Shown here in pieces: positions 1-15,287 of a stretch of DNA of 64,000 bases (positions are counted from its first letter, which is position 1; every line of letters begins with the position of its first letter). The DNA is from Escherichia phage vB_Ec-G1. Under the pieces are notes generated by a model that worked only from the letters and a program-made list of their open reading frames with translations, searched no databases and was not told the origin of the DNA. The translations under genes were made by a program, and so were the position numbers. The stretch is from sequence record PQ433349.1; one strand, 5' to 3'.

Positions 1-447
1 GAATACGACGCTTAAAACCAACCAATTCTTTACCGATAGTAGTTGGATATAAACAACTTTCTACTACCATCTGATCCCCTTCCTGACGGTATTCATAACG
101 AACACCATAGAAAGATGAAACTTTTTCTTTAATGCCTCGATAACCACGTGGGTTGGTTGATGTTTCTTGAACAATTTTACGATGAATCTGTTTATTAAAT
201 TCCGAACCCACAATCTCCTCCTCTTCTTCTAAAACTTCACCATTTTCTCGTAACCATTCTACGCTAGGAATAGTGTATTCACACGCAAAGCACTTAGCAC
301 CTTTATGCTCTCCATTAGAATCTAATCCATAAACCATCAGGTTATTACGAGAGCGATCCTTGCCATTTTTCATGCAGCGCGGACAACCTGTATGCCCTTC
401 CTTGCTAAGATCAACATCAAATCCATATTTAGTTATAATGTGCGACA
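1..447 (-). CDS. DNA primase-like protein, N-terminal zinc-ribbon part (gene continues beyond window start)
   Basis: Minus-strand ORF running off the window edge; AGGAG RBS before a GTG start near 447; N-terminus has CPRC...CFAC zinc ribbon and an RGI motif resembling T7 gp4/DnaG-type primase zinc-binding domains. Confidence 0.5.
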
Positions 448-460
448 CTTTGTTCTCCTG

Positions 461-739
461 TTAAAATGGTTCGTTAGTCTCCATCATATATTCTGCTTCT
501 AGTTCTTCCATGTGCTTTCTAAATTGGAAAGCAATTTCTGCTACAGTTACATTTAAATCTTTTTCAAAAACTTCTGTAGAGCCTTCATAAAAACGAATAC
601 CGTCAATTAAAAGCCCTCCGTGGTAATCCCAATCACTTTCACGAGAAAGCGGGTTAGGCTCTTCATAATAGTAATCCACCTCCACGACTAAGGCTTTCCC
701 GTTACGAGTGGTGTATTCAAAATCAAAAGTGTTAATCAT
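461..739 (-). CDS. hypothetical protein (92 aa)
   Basis: Track ORF in operon orientation, tightly spaced with neighbours. Confidence 0.55.
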   Translation of the reverse strand: MINTFDFEYTTRNGKALVVEVDYYYEEPNPLSRESDWDYHGGLLIDGIRFYEGSTEVFEKDLNVTVAEIAFQFRKHMEELEAEYMMETNEPF

Positions 740-1683
740 TATAGCTCCTCAAATAAAAGTCTACGACGCTCATTCAACACATCAATGTGATAATGAGTCC
801 TGACATACTTAGCTAATGCTAATCCTTTCTCCATGCAAACATCGGGAGCACTTAATAAGTATTCCGTAATATCTTTCCACTCGGAAGGTGTTTCAGCAAA
901 GAATAACAGATCTTTAAACTCTTGTGTATGATAATTCTCACGAGGAGAACAGATCAAAGGTAAACCCTTAGCACCTGCCTCAAGAATTTTAAGATTGCTT
1001 TTTGCATTATTAAACACGTTATCAATCAATGGCGCAAGACTGATTTGATGACCATCGTAAGATTCCATGTAGTTGGCATATGGTCTTACACCTTCATAAA
1101 CACAAGTTGGTGCTACATTTTCCCTGATTACAGACCATTCACGACTACTTAAAACTTCAGAATCCCTACGAAAACCACATATTGTAAGATCTTTACCAAA
1201 ATCGGGCAAGATAGCCAAATCTTGTTTATGTGTTTCACTTCCAGCCCAGACTAATGGAGTTTTGGAGTAGCGATCACGGGTCAACACAAATTGACCTTCA
1301 TCGTAAGGAAGTCCATTAGGGATTATGTGCACATTATCATTGTATTGTGAAAGTTCAACTTGCAAGGCAGGTGTCGTAGTTGTAACAAGGTCACTGTGCT
1401 CTAAAAACCATTTTAAATGTTCACGAATACCTGATTCAAAAATACCTTCTAACATGTGTCCTTTTGGAATAACTAAAGAGTCATCCAAATCCATAACCAT
1501 TTTAAAGCCTAGGTTTTTAAGGGCTAAAAAGCCCTCTTTACCTTTTGTTGGCACCCCGTTAAAAACGAAAACGTTGTGTTTAGGTTGTGAAGAGAACTGC
1601 CTTGAGTAAGGCAGCACTACCCTATGGAAATCGCAGACACTATAATTGATTCCGTTACGATTGTCAAGAATTATTTGTCCCAT
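739..1683 (-). CDS. GT-B-fold glycosyltransferase-like protein, paralog 1
   Basis: 314 aa; C-terminal motif KSNLKILEAGAKGLPLICS resembles the GT-B (GT4-like) nucleotide-sugar binding region; paralog of the adjacent gene. Confidence 0.5.
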   Translation of the reverse strand: MGQIILDNRNGINYSVCDFHRVVLPYSRQFSSQPKHNVFVFNGVPTKGKEGFLALKNLGFKMVMDLDDSLVIPKGHMLEGIFESGIREHLKWFLEHSDLVTTTTPALQVELSQYNDNVHIIPNGLPYDEGQFVLTRDRYSKTPLVWAGSETHKQDLAILPDFGKDLTICGFRRDSEVLSSREWSVIRENVAPTCVYEGVRPYANYMESYDGHQISLAPLIDNVFNNAKSNLKILEAGAKGLPLICSPRENYHTQEFKDLLFFAETPSEWKDITEYLLSAPDVCMEKGLALAKYVRTHYHIDVLNERRRLLFEEL

Positions 1684-1690
1684 ACATCAC

Positions 1691-2638
1691 CTACAAACTT
1701 TCAATAACCTGGCGTCGCAATTCGTTTGCATCTGCCAGATTGTAGTGTGTTCGAACATGTTCAGCCAAGAACAAGCCACGATCTTCCCGATAGTTTGGAT
1801 TGCGAAGAAGCTTAACAATTTCGTAATGCCATTCTGCTTTATTCTCTGCGTAAGCAACAGCACGAGCATCTACAGGGTTAAAATAAGGTAACACCTTAGA
1901 ACAAACAATCGGAATACCTTTTGCCCCAGCTTCCAGGATTTTGAGATTACTTTTGCAATTATTAAAATCATTATCTACCAAAGGAGCTATAGCAATAGCA
2001 TGACTTTCGTAAACATTCATGTAATTATCTAAATCTTTTACAGCAGCTTTATATTTGGCATTTGGTAAATTTCTGCGAATCTTAATCCACTCTTGTCCCG
2101 TGATGCTCTGCGATGCTTCATATCCCGCAATAGTAAGAAGTTCATCATCGAAAGTATTAGAGACTAGTCGTAAATCGGGTTCGTGACTAGCACCGCCAGC
2201 CCATACAACAGGGGTACCGGATGAACGATCATTTGACAAAGTGAATTGTCCACTATCAAAAGGAAGTGCATTTCGGATCACAACAACATTCCTATTTAAG
2301 TGACGGATCTTATATGCCAAGTATTCCGTAGTCACAATAACCACATCAGCAAGCTTAACCATAGCCACAATAGCATGAGTGTTTGACTCGTATAAACTTG
2401 CCAAATAATGCTCTGGATTAAGTTGGTAAAAATCATCTAAGTCTACAACAATCTTAACACCTTGGCGTTTCAAAGATAAAACGTATTCTGCACCTTTAGA
2501 GTGGATACGGTTAAACACAACAACATCTTTCTTAGGTTGAATATTATTGTTGTTAAATGGTATAACAATACGATGATAGTCACAACCGCTGTGAGGTTTT
2601 GCATCAATTTTTAGTTTAGACCATTTTTTATTTGACAT
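1691..2638 (-). CDS. GT-B-fold glycosyltransferase-like protein, paralog 2
   Basis: 315 aa; shares CD(F/Y)HR, VDLDD and KSNLKILEAGAKG(L/I)P motifs with 739..1683 (tandem duplication). Confidence 0.5.
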   Translation of the reverse strand: MSNKKWSKLKIDAKPHSGCDYHRIVIPFNNNNIQPKKDVVVFNRIHSKGAEYVLSLKRQGVKIVVDLDDFYQLNPEHYLASLYESNTHAIVAMVKLADVVIVTTEYLAYKIRHLNRNVVVIRNALPFDSGQFTLSNDRSSGTPVVWAGGASHEPDLRLVSNTFDDELLTIAGYEASQSITGQEWIKIRRNLPNAKYKAAVKDLDNYMNVYESHAIAIAPLVDNDFNNCKSNLKILEAGAKGIPIVCSKVLPYFNPVDARAVAYAENKAEWHYEIVKLLRNPNYREDRGLFLAEHVRTHYNLADANELRRQVIESL

Positions 2639-3311
2639 GTGCTAGTGCCTCCTCATAAGAAAGTCGGATTTTCCCATTTTTAATATCCTCTAAAGATGCT
2701 TTGTATTCTTCCCAGTTAATACCAATAGCAGCTTCTTTCTCTTCTTTTGTCAGATTAGCAAAAGGCATAGGATTGTTTCCAAAAACATCGTCTGGGTGGA
2801 TATAAGCCATGATACGAAGTGGACAAGGTGTTGCCTGAATACCATGATTCAAACCAGCAGCTTTCAAACGGTGTCCCCATTCAGCATCTTCAAAACCATA
2901 ACCGTGAGTGTAAGGGCGGAAATAACCCATCTTCTCAACAACGGCACGAGAATACATTGCAAATTGACACATTGCAAGTTCCCAGAGAATAACTTCTCCT
3001 TTGCTTCCAACAACTTTATCTTTGAAATACTCCGGCATACCAAAGAAATCCCATCCTCCAGAAACAGCCTGATCTACAAAGTATGTTTCCCATCCTTCCA
3101 TGACTGGGTAGCAATCATCGTCAAAAATAAACCAATAATCATAACCTTCTTCATAAAACTGGTGCATAAGTTCATTCCTGGCATAAGCTACACCTTTACG
3201 ATCTGGATCGTTGAATACTCGAAAATCTGCACGTGGATCTGTTACAAGGTAGTCTTTAAGTGGACGGACGCCTACAGTGATAACACCCACTCCGATTTTA
3301 ATATTTTCCAT
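2628..3311 (-). CDS. putative GT-A-like glycosyltransferase (DxD-type)
   Basis: 227 aa; acidic FIFDDDCYP motif typical of DxD glycosyltransferases; sits in the glycosyltransferase cluster. Confidence 0.35.
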   Translation of the reverse strand: MENIKIGVGVITVGVRPLKDYLVTDPRADFRVFNDPDRKGVAYARNELMHQFYEEGYDYWFIFDDDCYPVMEGWETYFVDQAVSGGWDFFGMPEYFKDKVVGSKGEVILWELAMCQFAMYSRAVVEKMGYFRPYTHGYGFEDAEWGHRLKAAGLNHGIQATPCPLRIMAYIHPDDVFGNNPMPFANLTKEEKEAAIGINWEEYKASLEDIKNGKIRLSYEEALAHVK

Positions 3312-3319
3312 TATCTCTC

Positions 3320-3883
3320 CTAAATAGTTTTACTGTGATCGTGACAGTGTAATAAATGATGTATAGACCGTTGAGGATTTGTTTGACCTAATCTGTAAAT
3401 GTGAAACAGATACATTCCCCGCATCAATCCTAACCTCTTTCCTTTTTCATGTAAAGTGCGAGAGAAAATTAAGTCGAATTGGATAGATTTTTCTTCGAAA
3501 GGAATTTCATTCCACAACGATTTTCTAAAAAGCAAAAAGAAACCTGCCAGAGGTGTTCCGAAAGGAACTTCTTCAACACTCACTTTATGATATTCTCTTG
3601 CAATCTTAGCATATTCTATATGGTTTAGAATATCTGGATCATCGTTAATTTGGTTAGAGAAAAGCTGATAACCACTACCTAACCTGTTACAAGTTGCACC
3701 TATTACATCAAAAGGTGGGTTTGAAATAACAAGCTCTTCAAGCATAGATGGTTGATCAGGCAGGAGGAACATTGTATCGGTATCTCTTAAGCACACCCAA
3801 CTATCATCTGGAAGAACGGCAATAGCTTCATTGATAGCCTTGCCGATATTTCCTGTCAGATAGGGAGTAATATAATAAATCAT
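3320..3883 (-). CDS. putative GT-A-like glycosyltransferase
   Basis: 187 aa; N-terminal ITPY...AIAVLPDDSWVCLRDTDTMFL resembles the GT2 Rossmann region with DxD. Confidence 0.35.
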   Translation of the reverse strand: MIYYITPYLTGNIGKAINEAIAVLPDDSWVCLRDTDTMFLLPDQPSMLEELVISNPPFDVIGATCNRLGSGYQLFSNQINDDPDILNHIEYAKIAREYHKVSVEEVPFGTPLAGFFLLFRKSLWNEIPFEEKSIQFDLIFSRTLHEKGKRLGLMRGMYLFHIYRLGQTNPQRSIHHLLHCHDHSKTI

Positions 3884-3899
3884 TCTCCCCTCCGTTATA

Positions 3900-4091
3900 T
3901 TAACTGTCAGCTACAATCCCACGTTTAATCATTTCTTGTTGGATTTGGATGACACGATCTCGTGCTTCCATATATTCTTTAAAAGATTCTTGGAGATGGT
4001 CACGAGCTACATCCCGTAGTTTAATCAGTTTGTCGTTTGTCACTTCTTGAAGAGAGATCTCGCCAGTTTCATTGGTCCCAAGCGTTTTCAT
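3900..4091 (-). CDS. hypothetical protein (63 aa)
   Basis: Track ORF, operon orientation. Confidence 0.45.
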   Translation of the reverse strand: MKTLGTNETGEISLQEVTNDKLIKLRDVARDHLQESFKEYMEARDRVIQIQQEMIKRGIVADS

Positions 4092-4299
4092 TTACAACCT
4101 CCTTAATAGCTACTGCACAGTTCTTACAAATACATTGACCTTTGTTCTTAGAAATTTCAATGTAAGGTTCATTTTCGTTTTCTCCGCGTCGTGAATCGTA
4201 TATTACAGTATTGAAGCAGACAACGCAAATGTTTTTAATAACGACATATTTTTGCACTTTCTGTTTAGTGCGGAAATTGACTTCAATGACTTCTCCCAT
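4069..4299 (-). CDS. small Cys-rich zinc-finger-like protein
   Basis: Track ORF trimmed to internal ATG preceded by AGGGGAG RBS; CVVC...CICKNC cysteine pairs. Confidence 0.45.
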   Translation of the reverse strand: MGEVIEVNFRTKQKVQKYVVIKNICVVCFNTVIYDSRRGENENEPYIEISKNKGQCICKNCAVAIKEVVNENAWDQ

Positions 4300-4583
4300 C
4301 AGTGAATCTCCCCTAAAATGTTGTTTTGAGACATTACTGCGGAGCATTCTACAGCATCATGAGTCCTTGCAAAACGCTCCCACAGCACAGCATCTACTTT
4401 AAGAACCATACAAGGATAAATACTGTCGTTGATCATATCAATGCTATATTTATCTACATCCTTTTCATCTTCCATAAACAAAGTAGCGTATGCTTCCAAA
4501 TGTTTACGGGTGTAGTATACGTCCTCTTCGGTAAGACCGACAACCAGGTAACTTGCTACAACAACAGTATTATCTTCTTGCAT
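4299..4583 (-). CDS. hypothetical protein
   Basis: Track ORF trimmed to ATG preceded by AGGGGAG RBS; start overlaps stop of upstream gene. Confidence 0.5.
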   Translation of the reverse strand: MQEDNTVVVASYLVVGLTEEDVYYTRKHLEAYATLFMEDEKDVDKYSIDMINDSIYPCMVLKVDAVLWERFARTHDAVECSAVMSQNNILGEIH

Positions 4584-4584
4584 T

Positions 4585-5106
4585 TTAACTCCCCTTTGGT
4601 AGATAGAAACCATGCACTTTATCTCGATAAACAAGACGCATATCACGCTCCCAGTGTGTCCTTATATTCCGTTTCTTGAAGTATAGAGCACCTTTAGTAA
4701 CATCTAAAACAGACCGCAATTCAGGAAAATGTTTCTCTAAATAAAGTAAACGCTCCGCTATTGCTTTTGCTTCCTGCCACTTATCTTTCTCTGTTACGTT
4801 AAAAGTTTTCGCATATGAGAATTGCCCTTTCTGGAACAAGACTCCTCTGACTGTGTTAGGAAAGTAGGCATCATTTCTTCTATTGATTACCACATTCCCA
4901 ACGGCATTCATTCCTTTTTTACCCAGACCGCGACCTTCTGCGTAAATTGCACAAGCTAATAGAATTTTATCATTATATTGCTTTGTACATTTGTGAACTA
5001 CTTTAGCGGTTTTTACGTTTGCAGCTTCGGCTTTCGCCACAACAGGTGTAAATGTAAAAGCAGTTAAGGATAGTAACGCAACTGTTACAAAGTTTTTTAT
5101 CAGCAA
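4585..5106 (-). CDS. secreted cell-wall hydrolase (SleB/Hydrolase_2-like)
   Basis: 173 aa; N-terminal signal peptide; AIYAEGRG...GMNAVGNVVINRRN...GVLFQKGQFS resembles the cell wall hydrolase SleB family. Confidence 0.55.
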   Translation of the reverse strand: MLIKNFVTVALLSLTAFTFTPVVAKAEAANVKTAKVVHKCTKQYNDKILLACAIYAEGRGLGKKGMNAVGNVVINRRNDAYFPNTVRGVLFQKGQFSYAKTFNVTEKDKWQEAKAIAERLLYLEKHFPELRSVLDVTKGALYFKKRNIRTHWERDMRLVYRDKVHGFYLPKGS

Positions 5107-5167
5107 ATTTTGCCTCCTTTTTAAGTTAACGAATTTCTAGTATAACACGATAGAGGCTTTATTGCAA

Positions 5168-5187
5168 GAGGGGGATTTCTCCCCCTC
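5168..5187 (-). terminator. strong GC hairpin downstream of the TerD-like gene (possible terminator/attenuator)
   Basis: GAGGGGGA-ttt-TCCCCCTC perfect stem; flanking T-run is weak. Confidence 0.3.
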
Positions 5188-5205
5188 AAAATCATTTGTT
5201 AATTA

Positions 5206-5808
5206 TTATGGACATTCATACCATTCTTTTTTACCACCGAAGGCCATCACCACATCACAAATATCCAGACCAGCTTTGCCTACACCATATGCTTTCAGCT
5301 TCCATTCCCCATCTTCACGAACCAAGGAAGCCACGTGGCAGATTGTGTTGCCAGCTACTTCAGGAGCCAGGAAGTCAAAATCCAGAATTTCCACATTGCG
5401 CTCGGAGTCGAAGATTTTAAGCATACCTTCAGAAGCATGACCAAAACGTTTCAGACCTGTATCATCATCAATGGTCAGAACAAAGGCAATCTCTTGTGCA
5501 TCAGGGGAGATTTTAGCCAGAGTAATATCAATCTGCTCCATGCTGCCAGTTCCATCACGAACATCGTCACCAGCGAAGGTAGAACGTTCAGGATCAAACT
5601 TGTTAGCATAGCAAACCAGATGACGTGCAGACAGCATTTCAGGATTGCCAGCGGCATTGTGACGACAAACCAGTGCACTTACATCCAGATCCAGTTTAGA
5701 ATCAGATTTCCAAGAGAATTCCAGGCGCAGTTCTTTCAGAGCCGGAGCAACTTTCTTCAGGGAAATTTTTTCGCTAGAGCCTTTTTTCAGGGAAATTTTA
5801 TCAGTCAT
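5206..5808 (-). CDS. TerD-domain protein
   Basis: 200 aa; duplicated KISLKK N-terminal motif, DLD and GDDVRDGTGS motifs typical of TerD/TerZ family. Confidence 0.7.
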   Translation of the reverse strand: MTDKISLKKGSSEKISLKKVAPALKELRLEFSWKSDSKLDLDVSALVCRHNAAGNPEMLSARHLVCYANKFDPERSTFAGDDVRDGTGSMEQIDITLAKISPDAQEIAFVLTIDDDTGLKRFGHASEGMLKIFDSERNVEILDFDFLAPEVAGNTICHVASLVREDGEWKLKAYGVGKAGLDICDVVMAFGGKKEWYECP

Positions 5809-5823
5809 CTTTTGTCTCCTCTA

Positions 5824-6093
5824 TTATTTAAGTGTAATACCAGTTACAGTCAATTCTACTTCCAAAAGCTTAGATGTGTTTTGGATTGATACTAATTGTG
5901 CATGATGGTTTAGTTCTACAGCAGAATAATCATTTTCCCCATCGTCTACTTTTAAATAAACAATGATTTCACTAAGGTCTAAACCATTTTCGTCAAATGC
6001 ATTTTCATAGACGAAAGTATCTCCTACATCCAAATCTTTAATGGTAAGGCATCGTTTATTTACTTTTTGCTCATCAATTTCGAAGTTTAACAC
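5824..6093 (-). CDS. small hypothetical protein, paralog of 7115..7393
   Basis: 89 aa; shares DLDVG.TF and (L/V)TNITLK motifs with the ORF upstream of the vWA gene. Confidence 0.5.
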   Translation of the reverse strand: MLNFEIDEQKVNKRCLTIKDLDVGDTFVYENAFDENGLDLSEIIVYLKVDDGENDYSAVELNHHAQLVSIQNTSKLLEVELTVTGITLK

Positions 6094-6322
6094 TTCTTCC
6101 TCCTAATGTTATCTCCGGTTTGTATATACGAAGAATTATAGCGTTTTCATTTTCTTTGTCAACCCATTCTTCATAATCAGGCCATACATGAATCTCTACT
6201 CTACTTACAATATCTTCCATTCGCACAGTCCCAATGAAATACTCTTTGAGACTGCGCATAATGAAAGCTTCTCTCTCACGCCAATAATTTTCTATGACTT
6301 GAGAGGCAAGCTCGTCGATCAT
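6074..6322 (-). CDS. hypothetical protein (82 aa)
   Basis: Track ORF, operon orientation. Confidence 0.45.
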   Translation of the reverse strand: MIDELASQVIENYWREREAFIMRSLKEYFIGTVRMEDIVSRVEIHVWPDYEEWVDKENENAIILRIYKPEITLGGRSVKLRN

Positions 6323-7113
6323 TTTTTAGCACCTACTTTAACAACCCACTCTCCGAACTCTTCAGATAAGAGTTTGTCATAAAGCTCTGAATCTGTCAAG
6401 TCTAAATCTTTAATACCAATAAAACCAACATTATCATAAGCATTTGCCAGTTCTTTCAGGAAGCCAAACTTCTCATTACCAACGCCAACCATGAACCAAT
6501 AAATAGGTTTATTCTTATTCTCTTCGATAAGACGACGAACAGCACTAGGATCACCATTCTCACCATCCGTCTGGAAGAATACAACACCAGGGGTAACGTC
6601 AGCACCTGGTTCAGATACAGCTACAACTTTTTCACGCTCTACAGACACTGTTTCAGTTTTACCAAGCAGACGATTAAAGAAGCCTTTCTTTGGAGCCTCC
6701 TCTTGTACCACTTGTTTAGTGGTAATATATTTAGTAACAGTGCCAAAATACTCATCGTAGATATCCGCCATTACAGGGGCGTAATTTGTTCCACCTCCGA
6801 TACGAACATTACGCATACATTTACCAACATAGTCATCGTAAACATCTGCTGTTGCTGGAGTAAGCTCTTGGGAACTCGTATTGAAGGCCCACATATCAAT
6901 TTGTTGATTATCGTCGAACAGCATACCAAAAGGAAGCAGTTTACCTACAAAATCACTCACTACCCCACTAGAATATAGACCATGCATACTACCAGAAATA
7001 TCTAGAGCACATGCTACACGAAGAACAATCTTACCTTCATTCAGGTTCTTATTCTTTTTCAGAGAGAAAGCAAGGTTTTCTTGACGTTTTTTCAGGCTGA
7101 TTTTCTCGGACAT
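6319..7113 (-). CDS. von Willebrand factor A (vWA) domain protein, TerY-like
   Basis: 264 aa; MIDAS motif DISGSM plus downstream GGTNY and TDGENGD; N-terminus begins MSEKISLKK like the TerD gene. Confidence 0.6.
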   Translation of the reverse strand: MSEKISLKKRQENLAFSLKKNKNLNEGKIVLRVACALDISGSMHGLYSSGVVSDFVGKLLPFGMLFDDNQQIDMWAFNTSSQELTPATADVYDDYVGKCMRNVRIGGGTNYAPVMADIYDEYFGTVTKYITTKQVVQEEAPKKGFFNRLLGKTETVSVEREKVVAVSEPGADVTPGVVFFQTDGENGDPSAVRRLIEENKNKPIYWFMVGVGNEKFGFLKELANAYDNVGFIGIKDLDLTDSELYDKLLSEEFGEWVVKVGAKK

Positions 7114-7114
7114 A

Positions 7115-7393
7115 TTATTTCTCCTTCTTAAGTGTGATATTGGTAACTTCTAAATCTACTTCCACCATATTTGTATCTGGTGGGATGCAATGAGTATAGC
7201 CTCGTTGTGCTAGTGATCCATTAATACAGATCGCACTGTTTGTGGAATTTTTAATGAACACCAAGTTACGGTAGGTATCCAACCCTGCGTCTTCATAGGC
7301 ATCATAATACATGAATGTGGCCCCTACGTCAAGATCTTCGAAAGCAATAGGTAAATCCTGACTTTTTTCTTCTTGAATATTGAATCTAAACAC
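7115..7393 (-). CDS. small hypothetical protein, paralog of 5824..6093
   Basis: Track ORF trimmed to GTG preceded by GAGGAGG RBS; paralog alignment starts at this point. Confidence 0.45.
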   Translation of the reverse strand: MFRFNIQEEKSQDLPIAFEDLDVGATFMYYDAYEDAGLDTYRNLVFIKNSTNSAICINGSLAQRGYTHCIPPDTNMVEVDLEVTNITLKKEK

Positions 7394-7949
7394 GCATACC
7401 TCCTCTACCAATTTTGAAGCCCAAATCGTAAGCTTCCTTAGTGATCTTTTGTAACTCACTTATAGGAAGTGTTACAAGAGGATCATCTTCTTCAATTTCC
7501 ATCTTGTCATCTTCTGTTTCAATGAGAGTATTATGCACTTTGTGATAAGGGTTGTCAACACGTTTAAACTTATTCTTTTCTGTGCTGAAAAAACAGTCTG
7601 GATCTTCTTCACCATCACCCCAACCTTGGTTAGGATCTCCGTCAGATTGTTCTGTAGGGATTTCACCTGTAAAGTACTCTTCCAGCACCATAGCAATACC
7701 GTCCCTTGGATTTGAGGAATGCATTAAATCACAAACCTTACCCCAATCCATAGCCCATTCGAACCGTTCACGAATGCCATTTTCATCCTCCTTCCCAGAG
7801 AAAACACAACCATAACTATCATAGTTGCCATACATCTCTTCAATAACAACACCGTCCTTCAAAAGAAAGAGGTAGCAAGGTGATCCGTCGAAAGAAGTAG
7901 AAAGGGCAGCTTTGCCCGATTCTTTGCACAAAAAGCTAAAACAACCCAT
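7386..7949 (-). CDS. hypothetical acidic protein (187 aa)
   Basis: Track ORF, operon orientation. Confidence 0.5.
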   Translation of the reverse strand: MGCFSFLCKESGKAALSTSFDGSPCYLFLLKDGVVIEEMYGNYDSYGCVFSGKEDENGIRERFEWAMDWGKVCDLMHSSNPRDGIAMVLEEYFTGEIPTEQSDGDPNQGWGDGEEDPDCFFSTEKNKFKRVDNPYHKVHNTLIETEDDKMEIEEDDPLVTLPISELQKITKEAYDLGFKIGRGGMRV

Positions 7950-8347
7950 TACAAACCCTCCTTCAGATTATCAAGAGCTACAGTGGTTTCACAAAATTCT
8001 CCATAAGCTTTATGATGTTCCAGAAAAGCTTCGGGTCCACCCCAGTCATTATCTTGTGTATTCCAGCCATCAATAAAAGCATCTTCAATGATTGTGATCA
8101 GTTCCTGTCGAGTCAACGTAATGGTATCAGGTTTCTGCGTAGTTTCCACACGGAACCCTGGTTCTTCATAAAAACCTTTAGTTACAATGGATTCTAACTC
8201 TTCTGCATCACAGAGGAAGTAGCCACAAAGATAACACCAACCGTCATCATCTTTCATTACTTCATAAACTTCACCACTTGCTAACTTGGTGAAAAGAGTA
8301 GGGTCTGTTACTGTAAGTTTTAAAAGAATACCTGTTGGATTATACAT
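7949..8347 (-). CDS. hypothetical protein (132 aa)
   Basis: Track ORF, operon orientation. Confidence 0.5.
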   Translation of the reverse strand: MYNPTGILLKLTVTDPTLFTKLASGEVYEVMKDDDGWCYLCGYFLCDAEELESIVTKGFYEEPGFRVETTQKPDTITLTRQELITIIEDAFIDGWNTQDNDWGGPEAFLEHHKAYGEFCETTVALDNLKEGL

Positions 8348-8513
8348 CTTCTTCCTCCTCTAAAATATGGAACCCGTAATTACAATAATCCTGAAAGGTT
8401 TCGTGTGCAAGATCTTCTATATCCTCTTGAGACATATCATCTTCAATTTCGATATCCACAACCTCATTGCATCCACACCAAGCAGTTTCAATATTCACTC
8501 GTAATATTTTCAT
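8340..8513 (-). CDS. small acidic hypothetical protein (~57 aa)
   Basis: Below track cut-off; ATG overlaps upstream stop, GGAG RBS; fills an otherwise empty gap. Confidence 0.3.
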   Translation of the reverse strand: MKILRVNIETAWCGCNEVVDIEIEDDMSQEDIEDLAHETFQDYCNYGFHILEEEEDV

Positions 8514-8710
8514 TACTCCTCCTCCTCATTGAAGTCAATATCTGCAAGGAGTTCGAATTTACGGAAGTTACGACAACCTTCATAAATATAACAATCACGA
8601 CAAACTGCTAGAACACTTGGGGGATATATGCCTCCCATCGGTGCGAATCGTTTTTCGTCATCATAACGGACACCAATGTCTTCATCAATTATATAGATAC
8701 GGATTCTCAT
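8513..8710 (-). CDS. small hypothetical protein (65 aa)
   Basis: Track ORF, operon orientation. Confidence 0.4.
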   Translation of the reverse strand: MRIRIYIIDEDIGVRYDDEKRFAPMGGIYPPSVLAVCRDCYIYEGCRNFRKFELLADIDFNEEEE

Positions 8711-9819
8711 TTACCAAGCCCTCGTTTCACAGCAGCTACCATCCCGTCTTCCAGAGATTGAACTTCATTAATATAATCAACACGAGCAGCACGGGCTTCC
8801 GTATTGATGCGGTTAGTTTCTTCCAACATCTTAACCAAGTTTTCCTGATCGTGACGCAGAGTTTCAATATCCAACACTTGACGGTTAGCCAGTGCTGCTG
8901 CTTCGATCTGATTCTGTGTAGCAAGATCGCTACCCAGTTTAATTGCCAGGTTAAATTCATCAAGAACGTTATTCTGCGTCTCTGCTGCTTTCATTTGACG
9001 TAAGCTCTCGATATACATTGAGAAGTTAGCAGAGTAAGCAGGAATAACATTATTTACTATGTTACGCGCAGATCGCATTAAGCTTGCAGAAACTTTTTGC
9101 ATACCTTGTACACGCGGTCCCATTTGGACACACAGTAGGCGCAATGCTTTTAAATCTGCAATACGAATCTCCAGAAGATCCAAAGTATCTCGGATCACTT
9201 GTCGCTGTTCTACTGCATCTTCTGGAAGAGCAGCCAAAGCTTGTTCTTCTTTTTCATAGGTTGCTGTTAGAAGCTGCATATCTCGGTTCAAACTTGCAGC
9301 ATATTGTCCAATAGCTTGATGTAGCTTTTCAAGATATACCAAGGAATCTTCTTCTTTGCGAATATCCATTTGAAGGTTCTTTACCAACTCTTCAATACGG
9401 TTATTAACATTATCAAACTCCCCAAACAGGTCTTCTTTCATACCCATAACTTTTTTAATGAGTTTAGTAATACCCTTGCTTTGTTTAATAGAGTTTGGAT
9501 CAAGTTGTTTTGCCTGTTTAATCAAAGCTGTGAGTCGTTCACTCATCTGATCGCCTTGATTACTACGTTGATGTTTTAATACCTCGGCATTCAAGGAACG
9601 CAAGGTTGTTCCTGCCTCTGCCCCAATCTCTTCGATCTCTTGTCGGGTCATAGAAGGCAAAACTGGAACTTCTTGCGGTGCCGCTGGTGCATAAACAGGA
9701 CTGGCATCTAACACGCTTGGAGCGAATACAGATTTACTTGCATCTGTTGTTGCAGCAAATACGCTCATTTCAGGCTTCTTCTGACCACCAGTAACTGCTT
9801 TTAAAAATGGACTTGTCAT
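8707..9819 (-). CDS. TelA-like (toxic anion resistance / KlaB family) protein
   Basis: 370 aa, predominantly coiled-coil; length and periodicity resemble TelA family; adjacent to TerD, vWA and TerC genes. Confidence 0.5.
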   Translation of the reverse strand: MTSPFLKAVTGGQKKPEMSVFAATTDASKSVFAPSVLDASPVYAPAAPQEVPVLPSMTRQEIEEIGAEAGTTLRSLNAEVLKHQRSNQGDQMSERLTALIKQAKQLDPNSIKQSKGITKLIKKVMGMKEDLFGEFDNVNNRIEELVKNLQMDIRKEEDSLVYLEKLHQAIGQYAASLNRDMQLLTATYEKEEQALAALPEDAVEQRQVIRDTLDLLEIRIADLKALRLLCVQMGPRVQGMQKVSASLMRSARNIVNNVIPAYSANFSMYIESLRQMKAAETQNNVLDEFNLAIKLGSDLATQNQIEAAALANRQVLDIETLRHDQENLVKMLEETNRINTEARAARVDYINEVQSLEDGMVAAVKRGLGK

Positions 9820-10406
9820 TCTTCATTCTCCTCTTCTGCATCTCTTATATATGGTGAAACACCGTACTCTTTAGCTACTTTAACCCAATCGTCCCATTTA
9901 TACAACCATAATTTTCCTTCGGTCCCTTCTTTATCTGATTTCAACCACATATTAGGTTGCTTACCTGGGTACATGCGATTAGGTTTACGATTATAACCTC
10001 TAACACATCTTGTCGCAAACCTATCTACCAGAACAAGAACATATTTATATTCGTGGTTCAACGGCTCTTTGGAAGTGGCTTTAGGATTAGCCCCTAATTC
10101 TGCTGCCAGTTTTTGCCAATGAGCACCGTGCCTACTAAACTTACCCATACAACCATCAATAGCATGAGCAATTTCGTGCTTCATTGTATCCACGATCATA
10201 TCTCTTGTAGAGTTCTTATGCAAGTGCCAATTTACAACAACAATTTTATCTCGGTAGTTGCACCAACCGAAAGAGTTATTCACTTTGTTTCTAACACAAG
10301 CTTTATATCCTGCTTCACGTAACATGTTGTAGTAAACAGGAAAATCTTCTTTTATTTCCTGCATCACTTCCCACCACAAGAGTTGCAAGTCTCTCTCGGT
10401 ATACAT
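9816..10406 (-). CDS. SprT-like zinc metallopeptidase domain protein
   Basis: 196 aa; HEIAHAIDG (HExxH) motif with downstream His. Confidence 0.45.
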   Translation of the reverse strand: MYTERDLQLLWWEVMQEIKEDFPVYYNMLREAGYKACVRNKVNNSFGWCNYRDKIVVVNWHLHKNSTRDMIVDTMKHEIAHAIDGCMGKFSRHGAHWQKLAAELGANPKATSKEPLNHEYKYVLVLVDRFATRCVRGYNRKPNRMYPGKQPNMWLKSDKEGTEGKLWLYKWDDWVKVAKEYGVSPYIRDAEEENEE

Positions 10407-10409
10407 AAC

Positions 10410-11003
10410 TTACACCTTAAAAGTGAAATGCGTGGTCGTGGTTTCAAAATCAGGACCAGATAAACGTGCACTGAAATCTGAAATATTTGTAATTAAAAAG
10501 CTTTTATGCATACCTAACACAGCTACGCTTTCAATATCTTCTACTAACATTTCAATCATGTTAGAAACATGGCTGAACGTAGAGTTTTGTTTTTTGATGG
10601 TGTAGAAAGAAAGATTACCACCTGCTGTATAAGATACCTCTTCAAAATCTTTAATCGTATATTGTGTGCCATCAGTAAAGAAAATGGTAGCTTTATTAGT
10701 AGCACGTTTCTTGTTTTTTGGTCCTTTTTTACGTTTACTGCGAGTAGGCAAACCGTTTGGGAACACCATAGCTACAAATTCTTCAGCAGAAACCTCCTTA
10801 CCGAAATCATAACCATAAGAAACAGCGTCTATAAACTCGTCATCTTCATTTTTAAAATAATGGAAATAGGGCCAATTTGAGAGATTATCGAGCATCTTAT
10901 GCTCGTCCACAGCAGAGAATGTATCCCTCAAAGCGCGTGTGATTTGCAAAGCATTAGGCAACCTTTTAACACCTACGATGGAAGTACGAATAGAAATTGT
11001 CAT
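10410..11003 (-). CDS. hypothetical protein (197 aa)
   Basis: Track ORF, operon orientation. Confidence 0.5.
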   Translation of the reverse strand: MTISIRTSIVGVKRLPNALQITRALRDTFSAVDEHKMLDNLSNWPYFHYFKNEDDEFIDAVSYGYDFGKEVSAEEFVAMVFPNGLPTRSKRKKGPKNKKRATNKATIFFTDGTQYTIKDFEEVSYTAGGNLSFYTIKKQNSTFSHVSNMIEMLVEDIESVAVLGMHKSFLITNISDFSARLSGPDFETTTTHFTFKV

Positions 11004-11017
11004 TGTTTTTCTCCTTA

Positions 11018-11455
11018 TTAACGTCGCTTGCTACGAGATGAACTCTTTTTACTTAAAGGGCTATTGTAAGATTTACGAGTTGTATAGCTACTATTTGTTT
11101 TAAAAGTTTGTCTCGGCTTTTCATAAGTTTTTATCTCTTGTTTAGGCTTACCATAAAAATTAGTTTTCGGTTTAGGTGTATTATAATGCTTATTAATAAT
11201 CGTTCTGTTATCGTTATAATCCCCACTGTTACGATTACTACCACCACTCATCATATGCCCTAACAACATACCTGTAGCAAACTCACCAACACCGCTACTA
11301 CTAGAACCGCCACCATTGTTGATAATAGTTGTATCTCCGTCAGATCCTTGTTGAGCGTATTGTTGAGGAGGTTGTTGGTATTGTGCAGGATTTGTTTCAT
11401 CCTCACAAGCTGTTAAAAAGATACAACCAATTAAAATCAGGGCTAGTTTTTTCAT
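11018..11455 (-). CDS. putative lipoprotein with low-complexity Q/G/S-rich region
   Basis: Trimmed to MKKLALILIGCIFLTAC start with AGGAAAG RBS; lipobox-like LTAC after hydrophobic stretch. Confidence 0.5.
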   Translation of the reverse strand: MKKLALILIGCIFLTACEDETNPAQYQQPPQQYAQQGSDGDTTIINNGGGSSSSGVGEFATGMLLGHMMSGGSNRNSGDYNDNRTIINKHYNTPKPKTNFYGKPKQEIKTYEKPRQTFKTNSSYTTRKSYNSPLSKKSSSRSKRR

Positions 11456-11642
11456 ATTTGCTTTCCTCATTTTGACTATTAATACATCTGTGTTTGAAAT
11501 CTCCAGAGAAGCAATAAAGTTGCTCTCCATCTCGGTATAAACTCACTTTACTGCCGTTGATTACGCTTGTCAATACAAAAATTACAACAAACAACCCTAT
11601 TGCAAAACAAATATTTTCAAACACAATCAACAAGTATTTCAT
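11403..11642 (-). CDS. small membrane protein (79 aa)
   Basis: Hydrophobic N-terminus; ATGA start/stop coupling with upstream gene; overlaps lipoprotein start by about 50 nt. Confidence 0.35.
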   Translation of the reverse strand: MKYLLIVFENICFAIGLFVVIFVLTSVINGSKVSLYRDGEQLYCFSGDFKHRCINSQNEESKYEKTSPDFNWLYLFNSL

Positions 11643-11989
11643 TTTAAAAATACCTCATCATCAGTTTCATTATCCCAGAAGAACAAATCCCAACCATTCG
11701 GATCATTCCATTTGGCTGCTGGAGAAGTCCATATTTGTTCGATATCAATATTCAAAACTTCACCGTTTCGTTTTGAAACAGCTTTAGTTAATTCCCAACG
11801 AGATACAGGCTCTACTTCCCCTGAACCACTCCCACAACAAGCTACCACGTTAGGAGGCAAATTAATTGGATCTTTGGTCACGATCATAACGCTTACCCCA
11901 GGGTAAACTTTTGAAAGATAATCTAAAACGTAATCCACATCACCAGATAAATCCCAAACAAGTTCTTGAATTTCATCAAAATTATTCAT
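11639..11989 (-). CDS. hypothetical protein (116 aa)
   Basis: Track ORF; AGGAG RBS. Confidence 0.5.
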   Translation of the reverse strand: MNNFDEIQELVWDLSGDVDYVLDYLSKVYPGVSVMIVTKDPINLPPNVVACCGSGSGEVEPVSRWELTKAVSKRNGEVLNIDIEQIWTSPAAKWNDPNGWDLFFWDNETDDEVFLK

Positions 11990-12000
11990 AAGTCTCTCCT

Positions 12001-12024
12001 ATAAAATAGCCTCCCGAAGGAGGC
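12001..12024 (-). terminator. rho-independent terminator after TerC-like gene
   Basis: GCCTCC-cgaa-GGAGGC hairpin followed on the minus strand by a T-rich tract. Confidence 0.5.
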
Positions 12025-12031
12025 TCATCTA

Positions 12032-13006
12032 TTAAACAGCAGCTTCTTCTTTTTCAGGGAAGATAAAGCTTGCAATAACACCAAGAGCTAATGTGCCTAG
12101 AACAATCATCAGACTTACGTTAGGGGAAATATCATGCGGGAGGAATGACCACTTGGCATGAAGTGTTTCACCGAACGGGTGATACATAAGTTTAGCACCG
12201 ACAAATACCAGAACCACAGCAACAGCTTTCTCTAAGTGAACCAGATATTTCACAGCCACACTTAACACAAAGAAAAGTGCACGTAAACCAAGAACAGCCA
12301 TCAGCATTGCAGAATAAACTAGCAGAGGTTCTTGTGTCACACCGATCACAGCCGGAACTGAATCAAAAGAGAAGACAATATCTGTAAGCTCAATAACAAA
12401 CACACAAAGAAGAGCAGGAGTTGCATATTTAATACCATTCTTAATGGTGATGAACTTTTCACCATCCAGTGCATTGTGCACAGGCAGAACTTTACCTACT
12501 AAACGAACAGCCCAATGCTTAGAGTAATCAATATCCTCTTCTTCGTCACCACCTTTGATGATAGCCACGGCAGACCAAGCTACAATCAAACCGAACAACA
12601 CTTGGACCGACCAATGAAGGTTAAACAAAGCGGTCCCTGCTGCAACAAAAATACCTCGGAAGACAATGGCTCCTGCAATCCCCCAAAGTAAAATCTTATG
12701 TTGGAGATGTGTGCTCTTAATTCCAAAGCTTGCAAAAATTGCCATGAACACCATCAGGTTATCTACAGAAAGACTCTTTTCCAACACATAGCCACTTAGG
12801 AAAAGCGCGGCAAACTCTTTACCATGTTCTACCCAAATGAATGCGTAATATCCTAAAGCTAAAGCAATCCAAAAAACAGACCAAAGCAAAGCAGATTTAA
12901 TTCCAATTTCTTTATTCTCTTTATGACCAAAGAAATCAATACCAATAGACAATGCTAAAATACCAACTAAAACAACTACATCAATAATGGGGAAACCAAG
13001 TTGCAT
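12032..13006 (-). CDS. TerC-family integral membrane protein
   Basis: 324 aa; multiple hydrophobic helices; conserved LSVDNLMVF and acidic DGEK features typical of TerC family. Confidence 0.6.
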   Translation of the reverse strand: MQLGFPIIDVVVLVGILALSIGIDFFGHKENKEIGIKSALLWSVFWIALALGYYAFIWVEHGKEFAALFLSGYVLEKSLSVDNLMVFMAIFASFGIKSTHLQHKILLWGIAGAIVFRGIFVAAGTALFNLHWSVQVLFGLIVAWSAVAIIKGGDEEEDIDYSKHWAVRLVGKVLPVHNALDGEKFITIKNGIKYATPALLCVFVIELTDIVFSFDSVPAVIGVTQEPLLVYSAMLMAVLGLRALFFVLSVAVKYLVHLEKAVAVVLVFVGAKLMYHPFGETLHAKWSFLPHDISPNVSLMIVLGTLALGVIASFIFPEKEEAAV

Positions 13007-13087
13007 TATTTTCTCCTTTCTCTTTGCGGGGAACCACTCCCCGCCTCATGTGATACATCTTACTCTATTCTAAAACTTTGTCAACAC

Positions 13088-13309
13088 TTATTTTGAAGAA
13101 CTTGAGGAAAAGATCCCACGTAGTACAGCCATGATAAATGCCACACACACCACAGTCCAGAAGGTGACAGGAACAGTGATATCTGTGTGACCCATCATTT
13201 CAACAACGTAGTTATAAGCCAGCAGCAGAAGCCATGCTGGAATCATACTAATCAGAAAAGCAATAACAAACACAATAATCACTGCAAGAATACCTGCTAA
13301 AACGCCCAT
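13088..13309 (-). CDS. small membrane protein (73 aa)
   Basis: Two hydrophobic helices; operon orientation. Confidence 0.45.
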   Translation of the reverse strand: MGVLAGILAVIIVFVIAFLISMIPAWLLLLAYNYVVEMMGHTDITVPVTFWTVVCVAFIMAVLRGIFSSSSSK

Positions 13310-13322
13310 AATATTTCTCCTC

Positions 13323-13796
13323 TTAAAGTTTATAAATAGTCACATCGTGACCTGTTTTTACTAAAGTTTCTTCAATCATCACTTCAATGATAGCCCAATT
13401 ACCTCCTGCCAACCCTGCTCCAATCATAGGTAAGCCGATCTTACATTTTTGGTCACGGAGAAGCAAATCATTAGCCATAGCTATTAGTGCATCGTACAAG
13501 GCATCATAGTCCAACTGACGACCTTTAGCATTGTATCCGTAACGGTATTGCCCGTACAGATTATATACCAAAGGGTCTGATTGTTCGTCTGGCACCCCTA
13601 AACTAAAACAACCCAGTTTACTTTGATCACCAGCCATTGTGTCTAAGTCTGCTGCATATGCGTAAGGAAATGCTCGTTTGATTTGTGGGGCAATACCTGC
13701 CCCCATATTACACATACAGTTGCAACAATGAGCAATAACAGTTACTTCACCTGCTTTAGCGGCATCAATAAGATTACCTGTTTTCATTTTAAGCAT
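13323..13796 (-). CDS. Macro domain (ADP-ribose binding/processing) protein
   Basis: Track ORF 13323..13901 trimmed to internal ATG after upstream stop; VIAHCCNCMCNMGAGIA and IGLPMIGAGLAGG resemble Macro-domain glycine-rich motifs. Confidence 0.5.
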   Translation of the reverse strand: MLKMKTGNLIDAAKAGEVTVIAHCCNCMCNMGAGIAPQIKRAFPYAYAADLDTMAGDQSKLGCFSLGVPDEQSDPLVYNLYGQYRYGYNAKGRQLDYDALYDALIAMANDLLLRDQKCKIGLPMIGAGLAGGNWAIIEVMIEETLVKTGHDVTIYKL

Positions 13797-13809
13797 TTTT
13801 AGCCCCTTA

Positions 13810-15286: not shown

Positions 15287-15287
15287 A

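Follow-up and report, generated by a model that had tools for sequence, protein, structure and literature searches.

What do four consecutive glycosyltransferase genes, set among the replication genes of a lytic phage, build, and onto what? The question is raised by positions 739–3883 of a 64,000-nt stretch of DNA from Escherichia phage vB_Ec-G1 (PQ433349.1; the whole stretch is hereafter called the window), where four genes, designated here GT1 to GT4, stand in tandem on the minus strand. An earlier note on this DNA, made from the letters alone, had pointed out the four genes and had proposed either a sugar modification of DNA of the kind known from T-even phages or glycosylation of another target such as host surface structures. 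Comparison with related loci indicates that the genes are one version of a mobile, modular, phage-only cassette organized around a distinctive enzyme of the GT-B fold. Judging from motifs and predicted structures, the products are very probably active glycosyltransferases that build a glycan, and the reading that we favor, as a serious but tentative proposal, is that virion proteins receive a short rhamnose-containing glycan, assembled one sugar at a time.

Gene Organization of the Locus

The window can be assigned by nucleotide identity to the genus Phapecoctavirus (phAPEC8 type, subfamily Stephanstirmvirinae): the segment 400–4400 is 98–99% identical to dozens of Escherichia phages of this genus, and 70 phage records cover at least 80% of it. 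One relative, phage anhysbys (NC_052656), is 98% identical, with window position x corresponding approximately to position x + 9555; its full annotation was read and it served as the complete-genome proxy for the parts of the phage that lie outside the window.

The four tandem genes that the note had recognized are found as open reading frames (ORFs) at exactly 739–3883. Transcription runs from GT4 (3320–3883, 187 aa), the first gene of the cassette, through GT3 (2628–3311, 227 aa), GT2 (1691–2638, 315 aa) and GT1 (739–1683, 314 aa) to a 92-aa ORF of unknown function (461–739; PHROG 4240), and then to a primase/helicase gene below position 450, the N-terminus of which contains a zinc-finger motif (CPRC...CFAC). 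All of these genes are on the minus strand, so that the glycosyltransferase genes lie upstream of the primase gene and not, as had been thought, directly downstream of it. Each of GT1 to GT4 has an ATG start with a GGAGG-type Shine-Dalgarno sequence ahead of it, and the spacing is tight, with 8-nt gaps, an 11-nt overlap between GT3 and GT2, and an ATGA overlap between the stop of GT1 and the start of the 92-aa ORF. Because the minus strand of positions 1–6000 has no terminator-like site, the cassette is probably part of a long operon with the SleB-type hydrolase and Ter genes upstream. Within the first 45 nt of the GT1 coding sequence (1639–1667, minus strand) there is an 11/12 match to the sigma-70 consensus (TTGACA-17-TATAGT), which may be an internal promoter for the genes downstream of GT1, or chance. 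Rfam and tRNA scans of the whole window gave nothing.

Glycosyltransferase is the existing RefSeq annotation of all four genes, and each of the proteins matches a PHROG family so named (E 1e-78 to 1e-148). Comparison with an 80%-identical relative gave ratios of nonsynonymous to synonymous substitution (dN/dS) of 0.06–0.10 for the four genes, values that are approximate with dS near saturation and that point to strong purifying selection on every member of the set. In Stephanstirmvirinae-type phages the 92-aa ORF invariably separates the primase/helicase gene from the last glycosyltransferase gene, and syntenic homologs were found in loci L007, L012, L014, and L015; it does not stand beside the cassette in the small temperate phages among the contigs annotated, and its membership of the cassette is uncertain.

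The Encoded Enzymes

GT1 and GT2 are 41% identical (E 3e-77) and match the same family, PHROG 7162 (E 2e-145 and 1e-148, respectively), in agreement with their earlier description as two paralogous GT-B-like genes. GT1 passes the cut-off of Pfam Glyco_trans_1_2 narrowly (25.2 bits against 25), and GT2 is below the cut-offs. The AlphaFold (AF2) model of GT1, with a mean predicted local distance difference test score (pLDDT) of 94, has the two Rossmann domains of a GT-B fold of GT4-family type (the enzyme family is meant here, not the gene GT4). Searched against the PDB with Foldseek, it gave 242 matches at E ≤ 1e-3, and the top 50 listed are all GT-B enzymes, led by GlgM, BshA, PglA, MshA, GtfC/Gtf3, and SdgB (E 1e-9 to 1e-8); the structural neighbors further include TarM, PimA, TreT, and sucrose-phosphate synthase. 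On the strength of the model, GT1 and GT2 are predicted to be retaining-type GT-B enzymes of GT4-family type.

The family to which the two enzymes belong is marked by the conserved motifs CxYHRxxLP, DxDD, DxVTxT, PNAxP, and KSNLKxLEA, and its N-terminal, acceptor-side domain is as conserved across host phyla as the donor-side C-terminal domain. In the latter the canonical E-x7-E motif is incomplete: the second glutamate (E235, in KSNLKxLEA) is conserved, and the residue eight positions upstream is Ala or Cys. Since the single-copy GT-B genes of other phages are always nearer to GT2 (46–62% identity) than to GT1 (36–41%), GT2 would represent the ancestral type of the core enzyme common to all cassettes, and GT1 would be a duplicate that has diverged.

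The remaining two enzymes had been described as GT-A/DxD-like, an assignment that is upheld for GT4 by its model and a D34-x-D36 motif and for GT3 by a DDD motif and family matches, the window proteins themselves being below the Pfam cut-offs. GT3 contains the motifs FIFDDDCYP (DDD being residues 64–66) and GFED, matches PHROG 2456 (E 3e-78) and PHROG 1579 (E 8e-13), and is weakly similar to the Pfam families TAGT and Glycos_transf_2, below the cut-off in both cases; Glycos_transf_2 is matched by 12 of 26 GT3-family members. GT4 matches PHROG 14179 (E 3e-112) and no Pfam family. Its AF2 model (pLDDT 91.4) has a minimal GT-A fold with a conserved D34-T-D36 motif, in which both aspartates are conserved in at least 90% of sequences, and the top PDB matches are COLGALT1, GalNAc-T2, the hyaluronan synthase HAS, and LH3 (E ∼4e-4, template modeling (TM) score ∼0.45), with LARGE1 also among these weak best matches. 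The only close viral match of GT4 is the C-terminal domain of gp42 of Cellulophaga phage phi17:1, to which it is 36% identical. NCBIfam gave no match for any of the four enzymes, and searches against PDB sequences, whether with single sequences or profiles, gave nothing useful for any of them.

The four proteins are predicted to be soluble. No transmembrane segment was found in GT1, GT3, or GT4, and the highest 19-residue hydropathy, 1.65 in GT2, is borderline. Their isoelectric points are 5.7, 8.5, 5.0, and 6.0 (GT1 to GT4), compared with 9.05 for the β-glucosyltransferase (beta-GT) of phage T4, so that all but GT2 are acidic.

Distribution and Modular Arrangement of the Cassette

Homolog searches returned small families, comprising 35 clusters for GT1, 32 for GT4, and 17 for GT3, and at least 572 IMG/VR contigs contain a relative of the GT-B family, the best 80 of which were used for neighborhood counts. 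Among these 80 loci a GT3-like gene is present in 44 and a hexapeptide (LbH) acetyltransferase gene lies beside the GT-B gene in 32, in the order LbH acetyltransferase-GT3-GTB (GTB standing for a GT-B gene of the family); the commonest neighbors are VRR-NUC, HNH, ParB_N, TerS, and TerL genes. In Stephanstirmvirinae-type phages the cassette is always found between the Ter/SleB genes and the primase/helicase gene, with variable gene content. The order GT4-GT3-GT2-GT1 of the window recurs in loci L015, L020, and L053, and shorter versions, in these and in other phages, are GT4-GT2-GT1 (L046), GT4-GT3-GTB (L014 and the Serratia prophage L008), GT4-GTB (Klebsiella phage KP13-26 and L012), and GT3-GTB (the lambdoid L010 and Pseudomonas prophages L021–24). 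Other versions contain additional genes, namely GT4-[nucleoside diphosphate (NDP)-sugar 4,6-dehydratase]-GT3-GTB in L018, and a GTB with a GT2-family enzyme, a PLOD-type glycosyltransferase, and DegT in L013. Cassette gene content being modular, a variable glycan is favored over the product of a fixed pathway.

The genomic settings are equally diverse. In the prophage of Serratia sp. M24T3 the three genes GT4-GT3-GTB, in the same order, are located between holin/GH19 lysis genes and HNH-TerS-TerL-capsid genes, and in the lambdoid phage GT3-GTB is located between antiterminator (Q-type)/HicAB genes and a small holin-like ORF followed by lysozyme, while in L009 GTB and GT3 are flanked by TerL on one side and portal, cement, and capsid genes on the other. 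A scan of species-representative genomes detected full-length relatives in four Pseudomonas genomes, where the order is a stand-alone Big_2 immunoglobulin (Ig)-like protein, GT3, GTB, a phage metallopeptidase, DUF2280, TerL, and portal. Further relatives occur in Chitinophaga, Flavihumibacter, Ferruginibacter, Mucilaginibacter, Ideonella, and an Acetivibrio bin. The one Bacteroidota locus annotated, in Chitinophaga cymbidii, has the order primase/helicase, GTB, helix-turn-helix (HTH) protein, hexapeptide acetyltransferase, GT3-like gene, short ORF, TerS, and TerL, and its short ORF clusters with the PLOD-type glycosyltransferase family of L013; a position before TerS/TerL is shared by this prophage and the commonest IMG/VR arrangement. 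In Cellulophaga phage phi17:1 the GT4-like domain is fused to a second, TOD1/MUCI70-like glycosyltransferase-like domain, and the gene adjoins one for an S-adenosylmethionine (SAM) methyltransferase, between a head-morphogenesis gene and the prohead protease and capsid genes. All contexts annotated are phage or prophage. Nearer to the window, phi92-like phages encode orthologs of all four proteins (66–77% amino-acid identity), and isolates of the BASEL collection are among the GT4 and RmlC matches.

Sugar Supply

The cassette co-occurs with genes for deoxy-sugar synthesis and for sugar modification, RmlC and RmlD accompanying it across the subfamily. Pfam identifies both proteins in the part of anhysbys beyond the window (E 1e-67 and 1e-74), RmlC is distributed among phage records in about the same way as the cassette, and RmlC/RmlD are annotated in KP13-26, which has only two of the glycosyltransferases. 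RmlA and RmlB were not confirmed in anhysbys, where RmlC and RmlD are the only recognizable enzymes of the pathway; a 108-aa ORF next to RmlC (positions 4875–5201 of L003; anhysbys gp193), which several records label glucose-1-phosphate thymidylyltransferase, matches no Pfam family. The deoxythymidine diphosphate (dTDP)-rhamnose pathway has been noted in phapecoctaviruses and phi92-like phages and claimed to be complete (PMC7552041; Olsen et al., 2020). From the genes that can be recognized, this claim appears to rest on RmlC and RmlD only.

Every Enterobacterales cell makes dTDP-4-keto-6-deoxyglucose for the enterobacterial common antigen (ECA). Host enzymes of the RmlA/RmlB type could deliver this intermediate, which phage RmlC and RmlD would convert to dTDP-L-rhamnose. 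As RmlC/RmlD persist with the minimal GT4-GTB pair, a rhamnosyltransferase is to be sought within that pair, and one of GT4 and GTB is probably such an enzyme. The dehydratase, acetyltransferase, and aminotransferase genes of related cassettes reinforce the view that the product would be a hetero-oligosaccharide of modified sugars.

DNA as a Possible Acceptor

If the acceptor were DNA, rhamnose or other sugars would be transferred to hydroxylated bases, in the manner of T-even phages, for evasion of nucleases. The idea is already in print, as rhamnosylation of hydroxymethylated nucleotides has been suggested (PMC7552041; Olsen et al., 2020), and phage DNA bearing multi-sugar glycans is known (bioRxiv 10.1101/2023.12.21.572611). 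It is favored by the position of the cassette among replication genes in this phage and, in small phages, beside VRR-NUC, HNH, ParB_N, and terminase genes, sites that DNA-modification genes also occupy. The TET-associated glycosyltransferase family (TAGT) is matched weakly by 13 of 26 GT3-family members (best E 1e-4), as it is by PHROG 842, the T-even beta-glucosyl-hydroxymethylcytosine (HMC) alpha-glucosyltransferase, and in L009 an Nmad5 “nucleotide modification associated” gene lies ∼6 kb from the cassette. Several recurrent neighbor proteins have no known function and could hide a new base-activating enzyme.

The enzymes on which T-even-type modification depends were, however, not detected. 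A dCMP or dUMP hydroxymethylase was sought by tblastn with a single ThyA-family query, T4 gp42 (dCMP hydroxymethylase; no TET query was run), which matched neither the window nor the complete genome of anhysbys at E < 2, and no hydroxymethylase or TET/JBP enzyme is annotated anywhere in that genome. Its sole thymidylate-synthase-type enzyme is a divergent ThyX, encoded near an NT5C-like nucleotidase and ∼5 kb from a MazG-like protein. None of the 80 IMG/VR loci has a gp42-like gene within 10 kb, and no oxygenase is among the 19 commonest neighbor families examined. On the side of the transferases, tblastn with T4 beta-GT gave nothing better than E 0.96 in the window or the whole of anhysbys, this enzyme (GT63) does not appear among the first 50 PDB structures that Foldseek matched to the GT1 model, and the match of GT3 to TAGT (PF20691) scores 19.3 bits against a gathering threshold of 27.5 and covers the DxD region only (residues 32–68); GT1, GT3, and GT4 are acidic, unlike T4 beta-GT.

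The wider distribution of the cassette points in the same direction. It is present in lambdoid and other temperate phages that have replication-initiation genes of the lambda O/P type (Phage_rep_O and Phage_lambda_P) and no polymerase gene in the stretch read, and lambdoid phages generally replicate with the host replisome and the host deoxynucleoside triphosphate pool. DNA-glycosylation pathways, where known, are usually clustered with ThyS or 5mYOX (bioRxiv 10.1101/2023.12.21.572611). “Despite a putative dTDP glycosylation machinery”, the phi92-like phages, which carry orthologs of the cassette and of RmlC, were described in the BASEL study as “exceptionally susceptible” to restriction-modification systems (PMC8594841). 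Literature searches found no nucleoside analysis for this phage group. One further gene of anhysbys is annotated as a DNA methyltransferase/Dcm (gp166; positions 41548–42231 of L002) and has no Pfam match at all; from such comparisons, both this annotation and that of gp193 as a thymidylyltransferase look unsupported.

Taken together, the lack of a hydroxymethylase match and of T4 beta-GT or TAGT membership, the mostly acidic enzymes, and the restriction-sensitive relatives speak against the sugar modification of DNA, on the T-even model, proposed in the earlier note. That the cassette does not globally hypermodify DNA can be held with high confidence, and hypermodification as the function of these genes is quite unlikely; for a sparse, sequence-specific glycosylation of DNA that dispenses with a known hydroxylase there is hardly any room.

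Host Envelope Glycoconjugates

The other target that the note had named, host surface structures, would be reached at the cytoplasmic face of the membrane, where the enzymes could modify the lipopolysaccharide (LPS) core, ECA, other undecaprenyl-linked intermediates, or peptidoglycan precursors. In temperate phages the effect would be lysogenic conversion or superinfection exclusion; in lytic ones, the receptor would be masked or envelope synthesis perturbed. The temperate phages indeed carry the cassette in classic moron sites, between antiterminator and lysis genes beside HicAB or between lysis and terminase genes, and the patchy presence of single glycosyltransferase genes resembles surface-glycan diversification. 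The GT1 neighbors PglA, PimA, and TarM act on lipid-linked or wall polymers, and TarP provides a precedent for a soluble, prophage-encoded glycosyltransferase that remodels wall polymers. RmlC and RmlD would, moreover, use the host intermediate from which the ECA sugar Fuc4NAc is made, and Stephanstirmvirinae bind surface glycans according to receptor data (PMC8594841).

The conservation of the GT-B family is difficult to accommodate on this basis. Its N-terminal domain is conserved in phages of Enterobacterales, Pseudomonas, Chitinophagaceae, Sphingobacteriaceae, Ideonella, and the Acetivibrio bin, the surface glycans of which are very different, and because this acceptor-side domain is conserved across host phyla, host-specific surface polymers such as O-antigen and ECA are disfavored. 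ECA in particular had been considered as the acceptor when the early matches were all enteric, ECA being a receptor for the group, and was rejected when full-length relatives with equally conserved N-terminal domains were found in prophages of Pseudomonas, Chitinophagaceae, and other bacteria. Among the contexts annotated, no relative lies in a non-prophage bacterial polysaccharide locus; the enzymes have no clear membrane segment (GT2 being borderline), there is no flippase, polymerase, or Gtr partner, and no Gtr-family Pfam matches of the kind expected for GtrA/B/C-type serotype conversion were obtained. Finally, lytic 150-kb phages keep the cassette and RmlC/RmlD under strong purifying selection, whereas the remodeling of existing outer-membrane glycans within one lytic cycle would seem to be of little use. 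Modification of a host envelope glycoconjugate is therefore rather unlikely. The suggestion of a target other than DNA thus stands as likely, and its example, the host surface, is possible but weakened by the conservation of the GT-B family in several phyla.

Virion Proteins as the Proposed Acceptor

In the reading that we favor, soluble nucleotide-sugar-dependent enzymes would add sugars successively to give an oligosaccharide no longer than about four residues, with one or more of them probably being L-rhamnose made by phage RmlC/RmlD. The acceptor would be Ser/Thr residues of the phage's own capsid, decoration, tail, or fiber proteins, modified in the cytoplasm before or during assembly, so that the released particle would have a glycan coat, as shown for Che8 and other mycobacteriophages. 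From the genes, their relatives, and their neighborhoods we infer the donor sugars, the sequence in which the enzymes act and, above all, the acceptor. The conserved acceptor-side domain of the GT-B enzymes fits either a universal acceptor or a sugar already placed by the GT-A partner, and in small phages the cassette is located in, or at the edge of, the late/head module, which counts in favor of a virion acceptor, as do the head-module position of the two-domain enzyme of phi17:1 and the Ig-like protein ahead of the cassette in Pseudomonas prophages. Protein O-glycosyltransferases are found among the structural neighbors of GT4 (COLGALT1, GalNAc-T2, LH3), and Gtf3/GtfC and SdgB among those of GT1; as far as models can be trusted on this point, they also favor a protein acceptor.

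A link to phages with glycosylated virions is provided by GT3, which shares 25% identity over 182 aa with the N-terminal GT-A domain of gp102 of mycobacteriophage Boomer (E 5e-15) and matches 356 Mycobacterium phage records. Large glycosyltransferases of the Boomer gp102 type are found in the right-end glycosyltransferase clusters of cluster F mycobacteriophages, and gene clusters for virion glycosylation of the Che8 gp108–110 type were reportedly described in mycobacteriophages by Freeman and colleagues in 2023. Two reports state that mycobacteriophages such as Che8 glycosylate capsid and tail-tube proteins with their own glycosyltransferases (PMC12363180; PMC11256854).

Several observations weigh against virion proteins as the acceptor. 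The match of GT3 to Che8 gp108 itself reaches only E 1e-3, and no cassette protein matches Che8 gp109 or gp110/Boomer gp105; GT4 had been considered as a counterpart of the GT25-type Che8 gp110/Boomer gp105, and this was rejected when sequence comparison revealed no relation. The structural matches to protein glycosyltransferases are weak (TM 0.4–0.6), with the PDB biased to GalNAc-T2 entries, and the best matches of GT1, namely GlgM, BshA, MshA, and PglA, act on small-molecule or lipid-linked acceptors. The site adjacent to terminase, HNH, and VRR-NUC genes also holds DNA-modification genes and morons of temperate phages, and in the phage studied here the cassette lies in a replication-gene operon, apart from the structural genes. 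Because the carrier phages have unrelated virion proteins, a shared protein acceptor is not obvious; this could be reconciled with a conserved cassette only if the GT-A enzyme primes the acceptor and the GT-B enzyme extends the sugar. Literature searches found no glycosylated virion protein for this phage group, and full-text searches found no experimental study of these genes.

A possible acceptor, to be taken as a lead only, is a collagen-like tail fiber. In the anhysbys tail fiber gp235 (positions 12641–14665 of L004, outside the window), a repeated KSAYQxWL...SLKG module separates four short runs of collagen-like G-X-Y triplets in which Lys and Thr are abundant. This collagen-like middle part is conserved in Stephanstirmvirinae, and only the last ∼100 residues are common to Vequintavirus fibers. 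Both GT4-bearing lineages checked, Phapecoctavirus and the Cellulophaga phages, have a collagen-like tail fiber, which is long in the Cellulophaga phage, and the best structural matches of GT4 are collagen hydroxylysine glycosyltransferases, a PLOD-type glycosyltransferase being present in related cassettes. Collagen-like proteins are glycosylated elsewhere, as in the rhamnosylated BclA of Bacillus and the glycosylated collagen of Mimivirus, although collagen-like fibers are widespread in phages without the cassette.

Extended to all carriers, virion glycosylation would make the cassette a pan-phylum, phage-specific “glycan coat” module, present from Proteobacteria to Bacteroidota, that places a variable oligosaccharide containing rhamnose on capsid, Ig-like, or collagen-like fiber proteins, and the first example of virion glycosylation in phages of Gram-negative bacteria, a generalization that is conceivable and that we hold with less assurance than virion glycosylation as such. 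Within it, the G-X-T/G-X-K-rich collagen-like fiber of Phapecoctavirus would, by analogy, be a concrete candidate acceptor.

Neighboring Genes and Possible Small-Molecule Acceptors

Upstream of the cassette, at 4585–5106 on the minus strand, is a gene for a SleB-type cell-wall hydrolase (Pfam Hydrolase_2, E 2e-17; annotated endolysin), which has an N-terminal signal-like hydrophobic segment and separates the cassette from the Ter genes; other parts of the genome encode a second lysozyme and an Rz-like spanin. All Stephanstirmvirinae-type contigs seen share a complete Ter-type gene set, which in the window occupies positions 5206–15893 of the same strand and includes TerD (5206–5808), vWA-TerF (6319–7113), TelA (8707–9819), an SprT-like protein (9816–10406), TerC (12032–13006), a Macro domain protein (13323–13901), a ComF-like phosphoribosyltransferase (PRTase_3; 13810–14637), and a HAD-type hydrolase (14630–15286). 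The set resembles, here in a lytic phage, the Ter-associated biosynthetic module of bacteria, for which Anantharaman, Iyer and Aravind are said to have predicted a “nucleoside-like metabolite” in 2012.

This neighborhood raises the prospect that a small molecule or a host protein is glycosylated, be it the “nucleoside-like metabolite” of the Ter module, a host factor, or a defense signal. The Ter, PRTase, and HAD genes lie directly upstream of the cassette on the same strand, an arrangement conserved in Stephanstirmvirinae-type contigs, and the best matches of GT1 include enzymes with small-molecule acceptors (GlgM, BshA, MshA, TreT, and sucrose-phosphate synthase). However, up to four transferases with deoxy- and acetyl-sugar enzymes point to an oligosaccharide rather than to a single detoxifying glycosylation, and in the Serratia, Pseudomonas, Chitinophaga, and lambdoid phages, as in the commonest IMG/VR arrangement, the cassette has no Ter, PRTase, or HAD genes with it. 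As the cassette travels alone, the notion that it is an obligatory part of the Ter/PRTase module was rejected, and glycosylation of a small molecule or host protein is very unlikely.

Other Features of the Window

The sign of the GC skew changes near 28 kb, at the divergence of transcription (strand switch at ∼27300–27450). The plus-strand arm beyond it (27446–63500) contains ∼100 very small ORFs, including at least eight paralogs of PVOG7392 according to the anhysbys annotation. Between 34267 and 42273 on the plus strand, at least 14 copies of an intergenic element of ∼75 nt precede small early genes. Each copy consists of a near-consensus sigma-70 promoter (TTGACA-N17-TAAGAT/TATAAT-like) immediately followed by a conserved GC-rich hairpin, GGGCGGCGGAATGG..CCGCC or GGGCGGCAATGGTGCCGCC, and resembles the promoter-early-stem-loop cassettes of T4-type phages. 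A palindrome close to the Escherichia coli Fur-box consensus, TAAATGATAATCATTCTCATTTAAA, is present in three copies (33598–33626, 44688–44716, and 44867–44895) in two ORF-poor stretches at ∼33.2–33.9 kb and 44.3–45.9 kb, the second of which comprises 1.6 kb without an annotated gene in anhysbys.

Implications

The annotation of these genes as glycosyltransferases was already known, and the DNA idea had been both published and questioned. The literature searched appears to contain no description of a modular cassette around a phage-only GT-B family, spread over phages of several bacterial phyla. The analysis corrects the rhamnosylated-DNA hypothesis in the literature and brings to light a compact GT-B family that is confined to phages and set apart by its motifs. 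Host range is very broad in Phapecoctavirus and phi92-like phages, which are being proposed for biocontrol and phage cocktails, and a glycan coat, if present, could alter antibody recognition, clearance, stability, and adsorption, as reported for mycobacteriophages. Virion glycosylation would then be a widespread phage trait and not one peculiar to actinobacteriophages. Were the product to be placed on DNA or the host envelope instead, a new modification route or a new mechanism of superinfection exclusion would be implied.

Comparison with Known Glycosylation Systems

The cassette falls outside the T-even/TAGT and Gtr families and is loosely connected to the virion-glycosylation genes of mycobacteriophages. 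The DNA glucosyltransferases of T-even phages (T4 alpha-GT and beta-GT, and the TAGT-family beta-glucosyl-HMC alpha-glucosyltransferase of T2/T6) and the metaviromic DNA glycosyltransferases associated with methyltransferases (MT) or TET are likewise soluble phage enzymes of the GT-B or GT-A fold encoded near replication genes, and the TAGT family shares its DDD region with GT3 at a sub-threshold level. T-even and TET-type systems have a hydroxymethylase or TET partner, however, whereas none was found for the cassette with the T4 gp42 query or in the annotations.

Gtf3/GtfC and SdgB, top structural matches of GT1, are similar to it in fold and compact size (∼315–330 aa) and extend or add sugars on protein-linked acceptors, Gtf3/GtfC being accessory glycosyltransferases of serine-rich-repeat adhesins. 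They are only 13–15% identical to GT1, in which the E-x7-E motif is incomplete, and the N-terminal domain motifs CxYHRxxLP and DxDD are specific to the phage GT-B family.

The virion-glycosylation machinery of chloroviruses and Mimivirus (e.g., PBCV-1 A064R and the viral rhamnose pathways) combines cytoplasmic GT-A enzymes with 6-deoxyhexose synthesis and methyl- or acetyltransferases. The cassette is similar in its GT-A and deoxy-sugar enzymes, and its Cellulophaga relative adds a methyltransferase in the head module; the chloroviruses and Mimivirus differ in having eukaryotic hosts and experimentally defined glycans and acceptors, and they are not known to share sequence homology with the cassette.

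Che8-type clusters of mycobacteriophages lack the GT-B core enzyme of the cassette and contain a GT25 enzyme, gp110, that is described as essential and has no counterpart in it, and the hosts of the phages considered here are Gram-negative. The product of the Che8-type clusters is an O-linked glycan on capsid and tail-tube proteins. Like the cassette, these clusters consist of tandem genes (two or three) for soluble phage glycosyltransferases that are located outside the structural module.

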